From: Candidatus Iainarchaeum sp.
Lineage (GTDB): Archaea; B1Sed10-29; WALL01
Direction of reading: 5' to 3'
Assembly: GCA_023129115.1 (NCBI GenBank)
Contig: JAGMCR010000009.1
Coordinates: 1-64,000, forward strand
Length of the DNA: 64,000 bases
The translations under genes and the position numbers were made by a program. This document shows, in pieces, positions 11,165 through 59,643 of the stretch (positions are counted from its first letter, which is position 1; every line of letters begins with the position of its first letter). The notes beneath the pieces were generated by a model, which worked only from the letters and a program-made list of their open reading frames with translations, was not told the origin of the DNA and did no database searches.

Positions 11165-11692
11165 ATGATGGAAATACGCTTTCACGGGCGCGGCGGGCAG
11201 GGCGCCGTTACGGCAGCAGAAGTCCTTGCGGTCGCAGCATTCAAGGACGGCAAGTACGCGCAGGCCTTCGGCAAGTTCGGGCCGGAGCGCCGCGGCGCGC
11301 CGGTCCAGTCCTTCACGCGGATTAGCGACGAGCCGATTAGGATTAGGCAGGAGGTCTACGAGCCAGACTGTGTCGTGGTGCTGGACGCGAGCCTCATGAA
11401 GGTCGTGGACGTCAGGGAAGGGCTCAAGGAAGGCGGCATCCTGATAATCAACACTGGCGAAGAAGTCGCCGGCGCGTGGGCCGTCGACGCCACCCAAATC
11501 GCCATGGACGTAATCGGCAAGCCCATAGTGAACACGGCGATGCTCGGCGCGTTCAACAAGGCCAGCGAGTGCGCGGTCACGCTGGACTCGCTCACCGAGG
11601 CAATCAAGGAAAGGTTCCCGGGGAAAATCGGGGAACTCAATTCAAAAGCGATAGTGAAGGCCAGCGAGGGCTGCGCCTGCTGTGAGGTGTGA
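11165..11692 (+). CDS. porG: Pyruvate/2-oxoacid:ferredoxin oxidoreductase gamma subunit
   Basis: [24 protein letters not shown]. Confidence 0.95.
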
Positions 11693-11946
11693 AGATGGTC
11701 GGTGGCGTGGTGACAAAGGTTGGGAGCCTGGACTCCAACAAAACGGGGAGCTGGCGGAGCTTCAGGCCGGTGATTGACAGGGAAAAGTGCATCGGATGTG
11801 GGCTGTGCAAGAAGTTCTGCCCCGACGTCTGCATAGAAATCAAGGACAAGAAGGCAGAGGTCGACTACGACTACTGCAAGGGGTGCCTGATTTGCAAGAG
11901 CGTGTGCCCTGTCCAGGCGATATCGTCGGAAGAGGAGGAGAAGTAG
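11689..11946 (+). CDS. porD: Oxidoreductase delta subunit (2x[4Fe-4S])
   Basis: KTGSWR, CxxCxxCxxxCP twice. Confidence 0.95.
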
Positions 11947-13065
11947 ATGGTGAAAAAGATTGCCGAGGGGAGCCACGCCGTGGCAGAAGTCGTGCGGCTT
12001 CTGAACCCGGACGTGCTGGCAATGTACCCAATCACTCCGTCGACACATATCCCTGAGCGGCTGAGCGACTTCGAGTCCGACGGGGAATTGGATGGCACGA
12101 TAATCCGTGTCGACTCAGAGTTTTCGGCGATGTCCGCGCTCGTGGGCGCGAGCGCGACTGGCGTGAGGACGTACACGGCGACGAGCAGCCAAGGGCTGGC
12201 ACTAATGCACGAGGTCTTGTTCGTCGCGTCCGCGATGAGGCTGCCGATTGTCATCACGGTCGTGAACCGCGCGCTTAGCGCGCCATTGAATATCTTTAAC
12301 GACTGGCAGGACTCGATTAGCGAGCGCGACTCGGGATGGATACAGATGTACGGAGAGGACTCGCAGGAAGTCGCGGACCTGATGGTGCAGGCGTACCGCA
12401 TCGCGGAAGACAAGAGGGTGCTGCTGCCGGTCATGGTGTGCATGGACGGCTTTTTCTTGAGCCATACCTACGACGTGATTGACGTGCCCGAGGACCTGAA
12501 GGGGTTCGTGCCTCCGTACAAGCCAGAGCACGCGTACCTGGACCCGAAGAGGCCGCAGACGCAGGGCGCGTGGGCCATGCAGGAGCCCTACTTCGAGCTG
12601 AGGAAAGAGCTGGAGGAGGCGGTGGGCGCGGCGCTGCCAGTGATAAAAGAGGTTCATGACGAGTTTGCGAAAGTGTTCGGCCGAAGTTATGGGGGCGGGG
12701 CCATTGATGTCTATGGCGAGGGCGACACTGTCGTTGTGTCCATGGGCAGCGTGTGCACCAACCTAAAGGTCCTTGCCGACAGGCTGGGCTTCCAGGTGGT
12801 GCGCGTGAGGTGCTACCGGCCGTTCCCGGCCGAAGACGTTAAGAAGGCGCTGGAGGGGAAGAAGGCGGTTGCGGTGTTCGAGAAGGACGTTGCGTACGGC
12901 ACTGGCCACGGCGCGCTCTACAACGACGTGCGGGCGTGCACGACGGGCAAGGCAGTGAACTTCATCGTCGGGCTCGGCGGGCTGGACGTCCCAATCAATG
13001 CACTGGAGAAGATGTGCGGGGAGATAGATGCCATGAATGACGGCGAGACGAGGTGGCAGAGATGA
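11947..13065 (+). CDS. porA: Oxidoreductase alpha subunit
   Basis: YPITPST, SEFSAMS, TATSSQGL. Confidence 0.95.
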   Translation: MVKKIAEGSHAVAEVVRLLNPDVLAMYPITPSTHIPERLSDFESDGELDGTIIRVDSEFSAMSALVGASATGVRTYTATSSQGLALMHEVLFVASAMRLPIVITVVNRALSAPLNIFNDWQDSISERDSGWIQMYGEDSQEVADLMVQAYRIAEDKRVLLPVMVCMDGFFLSHTYDVIDVPEDLKGFVPPYKPEHAYLDPKRPQTQGAWAMQEPYFELRKELEEAVGAALPVIKEVHDEFAKVFGRSYGGGAIDVYGEGDTVVVSMGSVCTNLKVLADRLGFQVVRVRCYRPFPAEDVKKALEGKKAVAVFEKDVAYGTGHGALYNDVRACTTGKAVNFIVGLGGLDVPINALEKMCGEIDAMNDGETRWQR

Positions 13066-13151
13066 CTATGATGCCTCTGGGGGCATCTGTTGATGCCCCC
13101 AAGTCTACCGCGCCAGCTGAGGTTTCGGCTGAGATGAGGTGGCAGAGATGA
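13045..13151. mobile_element. 65-bp hairpin insert (13066-13130) bracketed by 21-bp direct repeats
   Basis: GAGACGAGGTGGCAGAGATGA (13045-13065) vs GAGATGAGGTGGCAGAGATGA (13131-13151), 20/21; internal GGGGGCATC-TGTT-GATGCCCCC. Confidence 0.65.
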
Positions 13152-14035
13152 GTAGTGAAGTTATTTCGTCTGGGCACTCGGCTTGCGCCGGGTGCGGCGA
13201 AATCATTGGCGAGCGCATGGTGCTCGAGGCGCTGGGCAAGGACGTGATTGTTTGCCAGGCGACGGGGTGCATGGAAATCACTACAACGCCTTATCCGCGG
13301 ACCGCGTTCAAGGTGCCGTGGCTGCACGTGACTTTCGAGAACGCGGCGTCTGCCGCCAGCGGGATTGTCGAGGCCGACAGGAAGCTCGGCCGCAATACCA
13401 CTGTCGTGGCCATCGGCGGCGACGGCGGCATGATGGACATCGGGGTTCGCGCCTTGAGCGGGGTGATGGAGCGGGGCCACGACCTGATGCTGGTCGTGAC
13501 CGATAACGAGGCGTACATGAACACCGGGATACAGCGGTCGAGCGGCACGCCGAAGTACGCGGCGACTACGACTACTCCGGCGGGCAGCGTTGTGCCTGGG
13601 AAGAGGGAGTGGAAGAAGAGCATTTCGAGGATTGCGATTGCGCACGGGATTCCGTACGTCGCGACGGCAAGCATTGGGTTCCCCGAGGACCTGGTGGCCA
13701 AGGTAAAGAAGGCCCAGGGCATCAAGGGCCCAAAGCTGCTGCACATTTACACGCCGTGCCCTGTGGGGTGGGGGTATGACTCGAGCAAGACGGTTTACTA
13801 CGCCAAGAAGATTGTCGAGACCGGGCTGTGGCCGCTTTACGAGATAGAGAACGGGAAGCTCACGATAAGCCAGAGGCCGACGTTCGCGCCGCTGGAAGAA
13901 TATTTCACTGGCCAGAAGCGGTACAAGCACATCAAGCCCGAGCACATCAAGGAAGTCAGTGAGCGCGTCAAGGCTGGCTGGAAAGAACTGGAAAAGCAGG
14001 AGAAGGCCGGCGTCGACTTGATGCTTCTTCCCTAG
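13148..14035 (+). CDS. porB: Oxidoreductase beta subunit (TPP-binding)
   Basis: GHSACAGCG, GGDGG..DIG, DNEAYMNTGIQRS, PCPVGW. Confidence 0.95.
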   Translation: MSSEVISSGHSACAGCGEIIGERMVLEALGKDVIVCQATGCMEITTTPYPRTAFKVPWLHVTFENAASAASGIVEADRKLGRNTTVVAIGGDGGMMDIGVRALSGVMERGHDLMLVVTDNEAYMNTGIQRSSGTPKYAATTTTPAGSVVPGKREWKKSISRIAIAHGIPYVATASIGFPEDLVAKVKKAQGIKGPKLLHIYTPCPVGWGYDSSKTVYYAKKIVETGLWPLYEIENGKLTISQRPTFAPLEEYFTGQKRYKHIKPEHIKEVSERVKAGWKELEKQEKAGVDLMLLP

Positions 14036-16425: not shown

Positions 16426-17757
16426 ATGAAAAGGATTGCGGTAATGCTCTTGCTGCTTTTGGCTGTGGCAGCGGCAGAAGAAGTGTCACTGAACCGCGCC
16501 GCCACGCTCGCGGTCGTGGAATTCCCCAACCTCGAGACCCAGCCCCAGAGCATTCCCAGCCAGCTCGCCGTCACCGATAGCGGGAGCTACTGGATAGTCG
16601 AGTTCGACGGCACGTGGGTGCCGGTCACGCGCGAGGGCGAGGTGCTGAAGGAAGAGGAAGAAGAGATAAAGGCCGCGTACCGCGTGCACTACGCGCTCAA
16701 GAAGGTGGTGGAGCAGCGCGACTCCGACCAGTACCCCACCACCAAGGACATGTCGCTCACGCTTATGCTCGGCGACATCGAGGGCAAGGAGACCTACCTC
16801 GTGTCGTACCGCAGCCAGCTCCCAACAGAGCTGCAGGGCGACGCCGACGAACTGGTTGCGGCGGCGCAGGCGCTCAAGGCCTCGGTACAGGGCTCCATCA
16901 ACGCCATAACCATGCTGCGCGCCAGGGAAAATGAAGTGCTGTACAGCCCAGCGGACTACGCGGCGTTCGAGTCGTGGCGCGGGGACTTCAACTCCCTGAT
17001 GAGTTCGTTCCAGCAGGTCGCGGCAAAGGGCTATGCCTACGACGACGGGCGGACCGCGTTTAATTTGGCGGCGCAGGACTTCCTGAACCAGAGCACTGAC
17101 GCCACCGAGAACCAAATCGTGCAGGCGTTCGCGAGCGGAATCTCGATATCCAACATTCCAGGGTCACTGCCCGGGCTCGAGGGCACGGTCAGCCAGTGGA
17201 AGGTGAACTGGCTCGACGTAACCCTCACGGACGCGAAGATAAACAAGAGCGTGGGAGAGATTTACATAATTTACCAGGAGTTCTACAGCGGCGAGACAGT
17301 GGACGTGCTCCAGCAGCAGGCCTACGAAAAGGTGCAGGGCCTAGCGGTCACCGTGCCGCTGATTGTGGGCGACCTGATGCAGTGCGAGGACGACCTCAGC
17401 GCCAGGGAGCAGACCGACCTCCACGAGCTGAACGAGACGTACGAGAGGGCGGTGAAGAGCTACAACGAGGGCGCGGACTGGGAGCGGGCGCGCGAGGACG
17501 GGAAGGCCAGGACCGCGTACCTCAACGCCGTGAGCTATGCCGAGGACGCGGCCGAGCTGGAGGCCGGGCTCAGGGACGTCGAGTGCCCCAGGGCCACGCC
17601 GAAGCCCCCGGGCGGCGACACGCTCATGGACTTCCTCACGTCTGGGTGGGGCATCGCGTTCATTGTCCTGGTGCTGCTGCTGGTCGGGCTCTACGTGTGG
17701 AACAGCAGGAAAAAGGAGGAGACGTACGATGAAGGCGAATATGTTCCTGATTGGTAG
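16426..17757 (+). CDS. Secreted helical protein with C-terminal membrane anchor
   Basis: Signal peptide MKRIAVMLLLLLAVAAA; C-terminal TM followed by RKK. Confidence 0.85.
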   Translation: MKRIAVMLLLLLAVAAAEEVSLNRAATLAVVEFPNLETQPQSIPSQLAVTDSGSYWIVEFDGTWVPVTREGEVLKEEEEEIKAAYRVHYALKKVVEQRDSDQYPTTKDMSLTLMLGDIEGKETYLVSYRSQLPTELQGDADELVAAAQALKASVQGSINAITMLRARENEVLYSPADYAAFESWRGDFNSLMSSFQQVAAKGYAYDDGRTAFNLAAQDFLNQSTDATENQIVQAFASGISISNIPGSLPGLEGTVSQWKVNWLDVTLTDAKINKSVGEIYIIYQEFYSGETVDVLQQQAYEKVQGLAVTVPLIVGDLMQCEDDLSAREQTDLHELNETYERAVKSYNEGADWERAREDGKARTAYLNAVSYAEDAAELEAGLRDVECPRATPKPPGGDTLMDFLTSGWGIAFIVLVLLLVGLYVWNSRKKEETYDEGEYVPDW

Positions 17758-47528: not shown

Positions 47529-49334
47529 CTATATACTCTCTTTGACTGCCCTTGCAATCAATTGGCCATCGGCTTTTCCGCGCAATTCTTTCATTACTTC
47601 GCCCATGATTTTCTGGAACGCGCGTGGGTCGCCGAGCGCGCCCTTGTTCTTTGCAACGATTTTCTTGACTGCCTTGCGGACCTGCTTCTCGTTCATTTTC
47701 GAGAAGTTGTCCTCAACAATGTCGACCACTGTCCTCGTCGGGTTGAACACGATTGCGCGGATAATCTCGGGGAAGCCTTCCTTGGCGAACGCGCCCTTGT
47801 CGTAGAGCATGAACATCTCGATTAGCTTTTGGTCGGGGAGCATGTCCACGTCAATGCCCTCGCGCCGCAGCTCGGTGAGCGTGTCCTCGAGCACGTGCGC
47901 CACAATCTCGGGGTGCTTCCACTTGAGGTGGTCGAACAGGATTAGGTTGTTTGACGACGCGAGCTTTTCCGCGAGGTCGTTGCTCATCAGTTTTTTCAGC
48001 CGCGCGAGCGTTGCGCCGGGGAGCTCCGGCAAGGGAATCGCGTCGAGCCGTTTTTGCTCAACAACAACGGGGGGAATATCTGTTTCGATGTAAAGCCTTG
48101 CTGCCCCAGGCATGGGCCGCAGGAACTCACTGTTTCCATCAGGCAATGCCCTCCTTACTTCAGAAGGAACCCCTACGATTAGCTGATTGGCTCTTGCTGC
48201 TACCAGTTTCAGAGCGTTTTTGGCTCGTTTTTCGTCAGCCGCGACAAGGACGAACGCCTCACCCTCCAGCTTGAGGTTAACAATAATGTCTTTCTCAATC
48301 TGGTAGTTGCGCATGTCTTCGTCGCTGTGGATTATGCCGCCAACCCCTGCTTTCTTGGCATGGTCGGATAGTTCTGTGCCCACCCTTCGGTTGGGCTGCA
48401 CTTCTTTCCCCAGAATTCCTTCAAAGCCAATCAGAGGTAACGCGAGAACAGTTTTTCCACGAATAAACTTACATTTAGTATTTTTGAATAGATTCGTGAC
48501 GTCTATGATTTTTCCTACTTTGGCTTTTCTCTTTTCTAGCTCTTCAGCTACCTCAATCAATACTTGTTGCCGAGCTACTTCTCGGCGGGCTATCTCTGGG
48601 AACATTTTGAGGTCTTGTGCTCCTTTGATTTCAACTCTTGCTCCGCCTTTGATGCTGATGTTGATGTCCTGGCGGATTGTCCCTATGCCGCGCTTTACCT
48701 TCCGGGTCGCCCTCAATAATGAGCCGATAGCCAAAGCGGTCTCGTATACATGCTCCGGTGACTTTATGTCGGGCTCTGTACTCAATTCAATCAGAGGTAT
48801 CCCAAGCCGGTCAAGCCGGTACCACACTTCTCCGGGCTTCCGGTCAACTACTGTTGCTGCATCTTCCTCAAGCTGGGTGTTGACCATGCGTACCGGCCCC
48901 AATGAAGTGTCAATTCTCCCCCCCCTCCCCACGAGAGAGGTTCTTTGAAATCCAGTTGTATTTGAGCCGTCAACTACTGTCTTCCTCATGACGTGTATTT
49001 CCCCGATTACATCTGCCCCAATCATCTTGCAGACCTGGAGAGTAGTTTCCAAGGCCTCCTCATTCATTGGATGCGGGGGCTCGGAGTCTGTTTCCACAAG
49101 GCAGCTCGTGGCCGGGTTGTAGCAATAAACGAAGGTGATGTCGCGTGCTTGCTCGTGGCGGGCAGCCAAGTCGATTTCGCCCAGTTCGCCTGCCACTGCC
49201 CGTAGTTTGCGCCTTATCTTGAACGGAAAATCTTGGCTCCTGTGGGTGGGACACTCACAGAATAGCTTGGTAGCAGTATCTAATTGTACGTGAAGCTCCA
49301 AGCCGCTGCGGAAACCCATCTTTTCGTAGTCCAT
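47529..49334 (-). CDS. gatE: Glu-tRNA(Gln) amidotransferase subunit E
   Basis: GLELHVQL, MRKTVVDGSNTTGFQRT, GIIHSDE, PGAARLY.ETD. Confidence 0.96.
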   Translation of the reverse strand: MDYEKMGFRSGLELHVQLDTATKLFCECPTHRSQDFPFKIRRKLRAVAGELGEIDLAARHEQARDITFVYCYNPATSCLVETDSEPPHPMNEEALETTLQVCKMIGADVIGEIHVMRKTVVDGSNTTGFQRTSLVGRGGRIDTSLGPVRMVNTQLEEDAATVVDRKPGEVWYRLDRLGIPLIELSTEPDIKSPEHVYETALAIGSLLRATRKVKRGIGTIRQDINISIKGGARVEIKGAQDLKMFPEIARREVARQQVLIEVAEELEKRKAKVGKIIDVTNLFKNTKCKFIRGKTVLALPLIGFEGILGKEVQPNRRVGTELSDHAKKAGVGGIIHSDEDMRNYQIEKDIIVNLKLEGEAFVLVAADEKRAKNALKLVAARANQLIVGVPSEVRRALPDGNSEFLRPMPGAARLYIETDIPPVVVEQKRLDAIPLPELPGATLARLKKLMSNDLAEKLASSNNLILFDHLKWKHPEIVAHVLEDTLTELRREGIDVDMLPDQKLIEMFMLYDKGAFAKEGFPEIIRAIVFNPTRTVVDIVEDNFSKMNEKQVRKAVKKIVAKNKGALGDPRAFQKIMGEVMKELRGKADGQLIARAVKESI

Positions 49335-58449: not shown

Positions 58450-59519
58450 TAATCAAGCAGTCGCCGCAAGATTTTGTTGTCGAAGAAATAACTCTTGACG
58501 GGGAAGTGCTGGAGGTCGGGAAAGAATATTCTTTTTCTGGTGGGGAGGGAGAGCACCTTGTTTTTGTGCTGGAGAAGACAAACTGGGCGACTATGGGCGC
58601 GATGAAGGAATTGGGAAAGCGCTTGCATTGCTCGGAAAAGCGCTTGGGGTTCGCGGGCACCAAGGACCGGCGCGCCGTGACAACGCAGAGGTGCTCTGCG
58701 TGGAACGTGAAGAAGGAAGAGCTTGACAAAGTAAATATAAAAGACATAACGCTGAAGCCGCTCTGCTATGGCGAGCGCGTGGGGCTCGGCGACCTGTGGG
58801 GGAACAGGTTCACGATAACAGTGCGGGAGTTCGACGGCGAGGGAAAAATGCCGGAGAAAATCCCGAATTTTTTCGGGCCGCAGCGGTTTGGGGGGCAGAG
58901 GCCGATAACCCACCTCGTCGGCAAGGCGATTGTGAACGGCCAGTTCCACGACGCCGCCGACATATACCTTTTTGAGACGATGGAGGGCGACCCGGAGAGG
59001 GAAGTGCGGGAGAAATGCAGGGGCGACTACGCCCGCGCCCTCAAGGAATTCCCGATGCACCTTAAGTACGAGCGGTCGATGCTTGGCTGGCTCGCGAAGA
59101 GCCCGGGCGACTGGGTGGGTGCGCTGCGGGCATTGCCGCGGAAATTGCTGGTGATGTTCGTTCATGCTTACCAGTCGCACTTGTTCAACCGCGTGCTCGA
59201 GGAGCGGGGCATTGAGCCGAGGAAAGGGGACGTCCTTGAGGAGGGAGTGCCCACGGGCCCGCTGTTTGGCATGGAGTGCCCGCTCGCCGCCGGGGAGGCG
59301 GGCGAGATTGAGCGCCGCGTGCTTGAGGGCGAGTGGCTGGGGCTGAGGGACTTCGAAATCCACGGCATGCCTGACCTGACGAGCAAGGGCATGAGGCGGA
59401 GGCTCTGGATTGAGCCGAAGGGCTTCGAGGTGTTGGAGGGGGGCGGGAGCTGGATAAAAGTAAGGTTTTCGCTGCCGAAGGGGTGCTACGCGACTACTGC
59501 GTTAGATTACCTGAAGTAG
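58446..59519 (+). CDS. truD: tRNA pseudouridine(13) synthase TruD
   Basis: K..PQDFVVEE, AGTKDRRAVT.Q, GNRF.I, PNFFG.QRFG, F.LPKG.YAT. Confidence 0.95.
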   Translation: MIIKQSPQDFVVEEITLDGEVLEVGKEYSFSGGEGEHLVFVLEKTNWATMGAMKELGKRLHCSEKRLGFAGTKDRRAVTTQRCSAWNVKKEELDKVNIKDITLKPLCYGERVGLGDLWGNRFTITVREFDGEGKMPEKIPNFFGPQRFGGQRPITHLVGKAIVNGQFHDAADIYLFETMEGDPEREVREKCRGDYARALKEFPMHLKYERSMLGWLAKSPGDWVGALRALPRKLLVMFVHAYQSHLFNRVLEERGIEPRKGDVLEEGVPTGPLFGMECPLAAGEAGEIERRVLEGEWLGLRDFEIHGMPDLTSKGMRRRLWIEPKGFEVLEGGGSWIKVRFSLPKGCYATTALDYLK

Positions 59520-59643
59520 ATGCCTCTGGGGGGCGTCAACTGCCACCGGCTTAGGGGGGCGCCGACTGGCGCCCCCCTAGTCCATTGCGATGGCTTGGTA
59601 GTCTAACGCGAAGTTATCCTAAGCTGTTAGATTACCTTCAGTA
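59501..59643. mobile_element. About 107-bp hairpin insert bracketed by 18-bp direct repeats
   Basis: GTTAGATTACCTGAAGTA (59501-59518) vs GTTAGATTACCTTCAGTA (59626-59643), 16/18; internal TAGGGGGGCGCC-GACT-GGCGCCCCCCTA. Confidence 0.6.

Follow-up and report, generated by a model that had tools for sequence, protein, structure and literature searches.

The subject of this report is a small structured element that lies between the genes porA and porB of the archaeon Candidatus Iainarchaeum sp., within a 64,000-nucleotide (nt) stretch of DNA (contig JAGMCR010000009.1 of assembly GCA_023129115.1, positions 1 to 64,000), which as a whole is referred to below as the window. The two genes belong to a four-gene por operon that, by NCBIfam, encodes the gamma, delta, alpha and beta subunits of a pyruvate/2-oxoacid:ferredoxin oxidoreductase; all features of the operon and its junctions are given on the forward strand. 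The alpha subunit gene porA occupies positions 11947..13065 (PorA_Arch, E=4e-140, 467 bits, under the equivalog cut-off of 550, aligned 2-370 of 372), and the beta subunit gene porB occupies 13148..14035 (PRK11865 PorB, E=2e-118, 395 bits, cut-off 405). They are preceded by the gamma subunit gene porC/porG at 11165..11692 (PRK08534, 244.7 bits, cut-off 225) and the delta subunit gene porD at 11689..11946 (PorD_Arch, 107.3 bits, under the equivalog cut-off of 120; subfamily TIGR02179, 100.2 bits, cut-off 60). The scores of PorA, PorB and PorD are all somewhat under the NCBIfam equivalog cut-offs.

The stop codon of porA and the start codon of porB are now 82 nt apart, and the junction is framed by a direct repeat. 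Repeat copy 1 (GAGACGAGGTGGCAGAGATGA, 13045..13065) comprises the porA tail with a Shine-Dalgarno (SD)-like GAGGTG at 13050-13055, an ATG at 13062 and the porA stop codon TGA at 13063-13065. Repeat copy 2 (GAGATGAGGTGGCAGAGATGA, 13131..13151) carries the same SD-like GAGGTG at 13136-13141, the porB ATG at 13148 and, at 13149-13151, the stop codon of a short open reading frame (ORF). In both copies GAGGTG stands six bases ahead of the ATG. The copies are identical at 20 of 21 positions with a start-to-start spacing of 86, and the repeat can be extended to 24 nt with 2 mismatches. Its sole mismatch within the 21 nt is a C-to-T change at 13135, with the ancestral GAGACG in copy 1 and GAGATG in copy 2. 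The 65 nt between the copies begin with a 6-nt filler, CTATGA (13066..13071), which separates copy 1 from the TGCC at 13072 that starts the conserved element. The core of this two-hairpin element lies in sense orientation at 13072..13131 (nhmmer E=8e-15; covariance model 52.2 bits, E=1.6e-13). Hairpin 1 has a perfect 10-bp stem (13078-13087 with 13092-13101, -21.3 kcal/mol) and the loop TGTT, and hairpin 2 (13114..13131) has a 7-bp stem, CAGCTGA/TCGGCTG, and the loop GGTT, of which GGT is complementary to ACC at 13107-13109. A stop-free mini-ORF of 29 codons (MTMMPLGASVDAPKSTAPAEVSAEMRWQR*, 13062..13151) runs from the ATG of copy 1 through the whole element and overlaps porA at its start and porB at its stop, each time by ATGA (13062-13065 and 13148-13151). 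An earlier note, made from the sequence alone, had described the 21-nt repeat, the 65-nt insert, the mini-ORF and the two ATGA overlaps, and every one of these statements proved correct on recomputation. The flanking-repeat score at por is 18, much higher than chance would give, compared with a 99th percentile of 10 and a 99.9th percentile of 14 at 1000 random genome sites of the same geometry.

The state of the junction before the insert can be read from related genomes. A DNA search of 40 relatives of the genome studied (G000, 1.25 Mb) located the por locus in four family members, two of them congeners (G001 and G002) and two from other genera (G003 and G005). In each of the congeners the match to porA overlaps that to porB, and a single repeat copy with an ATGA overlap and no insert forms the junction (G002 ...GAAACGGGGTGGCAGAGATGAGCAGTGAAG, G001 ...GAGACGAGGTGGCAGATATGAGCAGTGAAG); this single copy stands in the same sequence context as repeat copy 1. 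The C-terminus of PorA, DGETRWQR*, agrees with the tails of the relatives, the native end being preserved by copy 1. The insert is likewise absent from the other two genera, with a porA/porB overlap of 8 nt in G003 and a stop codon followed directly by ATG (0 nt) in G005. Because the insert is missing from four of four relatives from three genera, the state in G000 is derived, and insertion is the parsimonious reading. The earlier note had expected single-copy junctions with an ATGA overlap in close relatives; this was seen in both congeners, and a compact junction without a long spacer was seen in all four genomes. By this comparison of sequences we regard the insertion, with a target duplication of about 21 nt, as established.

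The same data bear on the question whether the insert could be an assembly artefact, or whether the relatives could have lost the element by deletion between the repeats. G000 is a metagenome-assembled genome, the element is repetitive, and a contig from a second sample breaks within the junction: the 374-nt contig from run X2 begins at 13142 and is accompanied by short element pieces, all uninformative on an empty allele. However, a Logan contig of 29,483 nt (depth 18.5, run X1) covers 12800-13400 with no differences and no gaps, which argues against misassembly; run X1 may be the source sample, in which case this contig represents a second assembler on the same reads. The 21-nt repeat is also shorter than the word size of the assembler, which we take to be 31 letters, the por copy differs from all other copies of the element, the nearest being 92% identical over 38 nt, and a deletion would have to account for all four relatives from three genera. 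Artefact or deletion is therefore very improbable. In an exact-pattern scan of Joint Genome Institute (JGI) metagenome contigs the porB-start junction gave no match, and no RNA run was found to contain the stretch.

The insert belongs to a dispersed family. Its consensus consists of TGYCTCT, hairpin 1, AAGYCTAMCKYGCCA and hairpin 2, with a core of about 60 nt. The stem sequence of hairpin 1 varies among copies while pairing is retained through compensatory changes, and some copies contain 30-100 nt of extra hairpin modules after GCCA. Iterated nhmmer searches found 50 copies in G000, and a covariance model matched 57 times in G000, 37 times in G002 and 7 times in G001, with no match in 10 other genomes of the same order. 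A degenerate pattern run over 185,579 species genomes returned 15 stretches, 14 of them in two archaeal records and one in a metagenome-assembled genome of Caulobacteraceae, which is taken as a chance match. As judged from these searches, the two-hairpin family is restricted to one archaeal genus. Eight element-bearing loci searched against Rfam 15 at E<=1 matched only tRNAs, apart from two chance-level antisense-tRNA matches (E 0.16 and 0.38) to a plastid family. By crude gene calls, 38 of the 50 copies in G000 lie downstream of a co-oriented gene and 2 could not be assigned; 21 of the 50 (for example at C4:6895-7031 and C17:10035-10308) are situated at most 270 nt downstream of one of 38 tRNA genes, in the same orientation. 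Several of these tRNA-side copies have the 3' end of the tRNA duplicated behind the element. A recurrent 5' module resembling TTCTGTTACGGCCACGTTTGAA precedes some copies. The window itself holds a second, composite family copy on the forward strand at 59521..59626, for which the covariance-model match is weak (E=2.7e-4; blast seed 59519-59532).

Long flanking duplications are not peculiar to por. With 50-nt flanks, 12 of the 50 copies in G000 have a direct-repeat score of at least 11, the 99th percentile of 1000 random sites being 10; when the flanks are widened to 70 nt and copies from the congeners are added, 21 of 94 reach that score, with repeat lengths of 11-65 nt. The duplicated targets include 16 nt of a tRNA-Glu 3' end, about 40 nt of a tRNA-Asn end plus trailer, and gene tails of 39 nt in G002 and 39 nt (score 30) in G001. 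They are mutually unrelated, spanning por, rpoA, gene tails and at least 10 tRNA types, and empty alleles are known for the por, rpoA and C9 insertions, the latter two of which are described below. The second repeat copy begins within about 4 nt of the terminal GCTG of the element, and up to about 21 nt of filler stand between the first copy and the conserved TGYC; with a near-fixed 3' junction and a variable 5' filler, the junctions are polar. The proposal of the earlier note that insertion, accompanied by long duplications, is how the hairpins arrive is thus borne out by the empty por sites and by other copies of the dispersed family, which likewise carry long duplications.

Such an arrangement might also have arisen in two steps, from a local tandem duplication into which the element later landed between the copies, or in which it grew by template switching. 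Duplication of gene ends occurs by itself in G000: tails duplicated together with their stop codon, and with no element, are present at C4:70996 (71730-71800, period 30), C7:17321 (17590-17660, 14 nt) and C1:46816 (47555-47650, period 51). Against a two-step origin, the element lies exactly between both repeat copies at at least 10 loci in three genomes, with the second copy at most about 4 nt from its 3' end, a precision not expected of independent events, and no duplicated, element-free por junction occurs among the relatives examined. We therefore consider a two-step origin improbable. Just past the end of the window, at G000:C19:64130-64560, the tail of a radical-SAM-type gene is duplicated over about 90 nt behind an element copy, and a frame that runs through the element remains open into the displaced tail (period 145).

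Insertion by target duplication leaves both genes with intact ends, and this leads to the question of whether translation is still handed over from one gene to the next. Including por, with its ancestral ATGA, period of 86 and 29-codon ORF bounded by ATGA at both ends, four independent insertions at coupled gene junctions were found. The second is at rpoA1/rpoA2 (G000:C4:32229-32420; locus L006:1440-1556), where the ancestral junction is ATGA(C/A)TAA, an 8-nt overlap in G001 and G002, both of which have empty sites. Here the element is in antisense orientation, flanked by junction copies of 21 and 18 nt with a period of 104, and an ORF of 35 codons ends with its TGA on the rpoA2 ATG; the second SD copy is degraded (GGCGGTTGATATG). 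The third is at the tail of a gene for an RNase Z-like protein of the metallo-beta-lactamase (MBL) fold (G000:C9:44307-44540), which ends ...FDNVIVAKDFMRLEI*. G002 has the empty site, with TGA and ATG separated by 4 nt, and G000 has two tandem units of that tail plus the element, with a period of 113 and two 37-codon ORFs chained by TGATG, the last relay stop standing 4 nt before the ATG of the next gene. The fourth is at the tail of the same MBL-fold gene in G001 (G001:C15; locus L120:2180-2360), where the downstream gene differs. The insert there is an unrelated hairpin of about 77 nt with a duplication of about 48 nt, independent of the event in G000, and gives a period of 125 and an ORF of 42 codons with an ATGA start and a TAATG end.

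Every one of the four insertions at coupled junctions thus has an open relay ORF, and in every one the period is 2 mod 3, as is needed for chaining by ATGA as well as by TGATG. At uncoupled gene tails, a relay ORF, defined as one that starts on the stop codon and stays in frame to the stop of the second copy, was found in none of seven insertions (Fisher probability about 0.003), and a screen of all 94 copies yielded no further coupled context with two credible flanking genes. The phase is not a property of the insertion mechanism, since the period residues are spread over the 21 flanked copies (10 with residue 2, 6 with residue 1 and 5 with residue 0). Nor are the element cores unusually stop-free: the fraction with an open frame is 0.50 in sense and 0.34 in antisense orientation, compared with 0.58 for shuffled cores and 0.63 for random genomic 60-mers. 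A relay would therefore be expected by chance in about 0.11-0.17 of insertions, and the joint chance of relays at four of four coupled and at none of seven uncoupled insertions is of the order of 1e-3. Together, por and rpoA1/rpoA2 are a particularly clean example of a relay. The recurring geometry points to selection for ribosome hand-over, and the relay role of the mini-ORF is supported by this comparative evidence.

We consider it probable, with some reserve, that the element inserted into the ATGA overlap with target duplication and that the relay mini-ORF carries ribosomes from porA to porB. According to this reading, a non-autonomous structured element of about 60 nt entered the 4-nt stop/start overlap of the two genes and duplicated about 21 nt of target, comprising the porA tail, the SD-like GAGGTG and ATGA. 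By virtue of the duplication, copy 1 retains the last codons and stop of porA, and copy 2 the ribosome-binding site and start of porB. The duplicated ATG of copy 1 opens the 29-codon frame through the element, which stops on the ATGA of copy 2. Ribosomes that end porA could start again on the mini-ORF, melt the hairpins in the course of translating them, then terminate on the porB start and reinitiate there; the peptide itself would be a by-product. The mini-ORF would in this way span an 82-nt gap that would otherwise probably abolish termination-reinitiation coupling. To judge from the four cases, insertions at coupled junctions may survive only with a period of 2 mod 3 and an open frame.

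Published work gives the distances a context. In the available part of Huber et al. 2023 (PMC10666635), reinitiation in Haloferax volcanii and E. coli declines sharply as the distance grows, having been abolished in H. volcanii by a spacer of 22 nt, and the subunits of heteromeric complexes are a class enriched for short overlaps. In G000, the ends of 176 of 1019 crudely called genes overlap, as NTGA, a downstream ORF that is 80 codons or longer, and SD-like 4-mers precede 94 of these 176 starts as against 182 of 843 other gene tails.

The insertion could also be real and the mini-ORF incidental, with porB initiating independently on its duplicated SD and ATG and the frame being open and in phase by chance. 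In favour of this, copy 2 preserves the SD-like GAGGTG together with its 6-nt spacer, internal starts commonly carry SD-like motifs, and for a single event the chance of a relay is about 0.17. On the other hand, relay geometry in four of four coupled but none of seven uncoupled insertions is hard to reconcile with coincidence, and the degraded second SD at rpoA1/rpoA2 favours dependence on hand-over. For the second SD copy at por, moreover, folding predicts pairing most of the time (unpaired probability 0.08), in part with the CUACC of the element, and a translating ribosome would open this pairing as well as the -21.3 kcal/mol hairpin. We hold an incidental mini-ORF to be possible but rather unlikely.

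Several points nevertheless weigh against the relay as the explanation. As the SD-like motif was duplicated intact, porB could initiate de novo without a relay, and two successive reinitiations would be expected to reduce the amount of PorB compared with PorA. The statistical design is weak, with four events, classes defined after the data had been seen and a crude gene caller. Frames are open through the element also at the uncoupled sites C19:64318 and G002:C8:10424, so that an open frame alone is not rare. The 16S rRNA is absent from the assembly, and the SD-like motifs were called without the anti-SD sequence of the host. Since the genomes are incomplete, an enzyme that mobilises the element could simply be unassembled. 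The earlier note had held that the coupling is preserved by the mini-ORF; the geometry it pointed to recurs at all four coupled insertions and at none of the seven uncoupled ones, and by this comparison such preservation is probable.

The earlier note had further proposed two mutually exclusive folds for the insert. Both pairings exist: GGGGGCATC can pair downstream with GATGCCCCC over 10 bp (-21.3 kcal/mol) or, through its GGCATC, with the upstream GATGCC over 6 bp (-9.1 kcal/mol). They are very unequal in stability, and the upstream arm consists of 2 flank bases plus the conserved TGCC of the family, the partner bases in the stem being specific to the por copy, and a meaning for the pair of folds is not supported. 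The upstream pairing could at most form a transient co-transcriptional fold, and there is no evidence for a switch. A different, putative contact recurs throughout the family. Base X of the TA[X]C motif and the central base of the hairpin-2 loop are a Watson-Crick match in all 71 copies parsed (53 A:T, 15 C:G and 3 T:A); in the window the contact would be between 13107-13109 and 13121-13123. The count comes from a purpose-made parser that covered 71 of the 94 copies, the other 23 being truncated or carrying internal insertions, and MAFFT did not place the two hairpin-2 subtypes in register. As the three pair classes are sublineages, the 71 of 71 reflect no more than about two independent double changes. 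The covariation suggests a pseudoknot-like contact, and its perfection would indicate that structure constrains the element, either as RNA or as single-stranded DNA.

G000, G001 and G002, all of them incomplete (84-89%), were searched for insertion enzymes. No match to Cas1, RVT_1 or Y1_Tnp was found in these three genomes, and of DDE transposases only a sub-threshold 20-bit DDE_Tnp_1 fragment. One tyrosine recombinase gene is present in G000 and a partial one in G001, and none was found in G002. Four TnpB/Cas12f-like genes are present in G000 (C3:10561-10764, C3:79611-79808, C3:102282-102485 and C13:134192-134389), with none above the cut-off in the two congeners; a link to TnpB was rejected on the ground that these genes lie on contigs or at positions without element copies. 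A miniature inverted-repeat transposable element (MITE) was rejected as well, for the ends TGYCTCT.../...GCTG are not inverted repeats, the two hairpins are separate and internal, and the duplications are long and variable. Unrelated targets exclude a single attachment (att) site, and a site-specific integrative element with a tyrosine integrase was discarded on account of flanking repeats that are unrelated between loci. Repeats derived from repetitive extragenic palindromes with their associated tyrosine transposases (REP/RAYT) or from insertion sequences (IS) of the IS200/IS605 group were dismissed on the lack of a Y1_Tnp match and the presence of duplications. Casposons make a fixed 14-15-nt duplication, and a casposon-derived element was rejected on the variable duplications and the lack of a Cas1 match. 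A C/D-box small RNA (sRNA), to which ATGATG and CTGA in the por copy might point, was also rejected, the bases being in the flank or outside the family consensus; with regard to a terminator, the por copy has no T-run.

With regard to a retroposed (target-primed) element, variable duplications, a near-precise 3' junction and a variable 5' filler are seen, and no RVT_1 match was obtained in the three incomplete genomes. The insertion mechanism would produce variable duplications of 13-65 nt, with the duplicate abutting the 3' end of the element (at most about 4 nt away) and a 5' filler of up to about 21 nt. As a speculation that we put forward tentatively and hold to be unlikely as a whole, the genus might possess an undescribed process that pastes small structured DNA or RNA-derived elements with polarity, perhaps 3'-end-primed and possibly RNA-mediated, without a recognisable transposase, integrase, Cas1 or reverse transcriptase and with duplications of 13-65 nt. 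The junctions of por and of the RNA polymerase A'/A'' genes would have been invaded harmlessly, only relay-forming insertions being kept by selection, and the pseudoknot-like pairing would serve as the recognition structure.

The relay geometry would mean that a very small, gene-dense archaeal genome can tolerate selfish DNA within essential operons, the duplication repairing both gene ends and a throw-away ORF keeping ribosomes flowing. To our knowledge, DPANN archaea are not amenable to cultivation for genetic work. The rule that coupled junctions show an open frame and a period of 2 mod 3 amounts to a natural experiment, and it suggests that termination-reinitiation coupling matters in these organisms. 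We know of no accepted model in prokaryotes for insertion with long, variable duplications and no visible enzyme, and a multicopy family offers many junctions for dissecting the chemistry. No description of such elements in archaea was found in the open-access literature searched.

Integrative elements that target tRNA genes, which PMC2853133 also discusses, produce attL/attR duplications of tRNA 3' ends. The present element resembles them in that the last 15-40 nt of tRNA genes (tRNA-Glu and tRNA-Asn) are duplicated beside the insert, but it has many unrelated targets and no target copy within the element, and is not a case of site-specific recombination. MIRUs, which are mycobacterial interspersed repetitive units, are co-oriented with their flanking genes, and their ORF is intrinsic to the element. 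The antisense copy at rpoA1/rpoA2, which encodes a different peptide, and the different insert in G001 also form relays, so the ORF is not built into the present element.

The comparisons that follow refer to the available parts of the papers cited. MIRUs insert at start codons, and their internal ORF is coupled at -4 nt (PMC12548453). Like them, the por insert is a short, gene-less, dispersed repeat at a gene start inside an operon, with a small ORF that has 4-nt overlaps on both sides, so that coupling would survive; the likeness noted is one of architecture. The host here is a DPANN archaeon, the target duplications are long and variable, and most copies (21 of 50) lie behind tRNA genes and not in operons, points in which the family differs from MIRUs. 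The relay idea itself is as proposed for mycobacterial MIRUs; what is new here is that at coupled junctions the period is 2 mod 3 and the relay ORF open in four of four insertions. With the termination-reinitiation systems at ATGA and TGATG overlaps (Huber et al. 2019, PMC6728339; Huber et al. 2023, PMC10666635), the por junction shares the canonical -4 overlap, here at both ends of the mini-ORF, and its genes encode subunits of a heteromeric complex, a class enriched for overlaps; it differs from them in that a disposable ORF created by a mobile element would link two successive reinitiations.

As regards the insertion itself, the closest parallels in the same sources are insertions with long target duplication and the IS1634/IS1549 family. 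Like the former (Furuta, Abe and Kobayashi 2010, PMC2853133), the por insert has a direct duplication that is single-copy in the empty allele and overlaps a gene 3' end, and it encodes no transposase or integrase. Those insertions are, in contrast, kb-sized bacterial restriction-modification units with repeats from >30 bp to about 400 bp, and here a 60-nt multicopy structured element with repeats of 13-65 nt is involved, of which only some copies reach the length threshold of >30 bp; in the available part of that paper, no archaeal case of long target duplication survived the screen. Members of IS1634/IS1549, found preferentially among Euryarchaeota, also have long, variable direct repeats (8-514 bp) and no mechanistic model, but they are 1.5-2 kb long with a DDE transposase and terminal inverted repeats, which the present element lacks (PMC2266710). 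The MITE-like sRNA elements of Pyrobaculum are, as far as the available text describes them, a different kind of element (PMC6009581).

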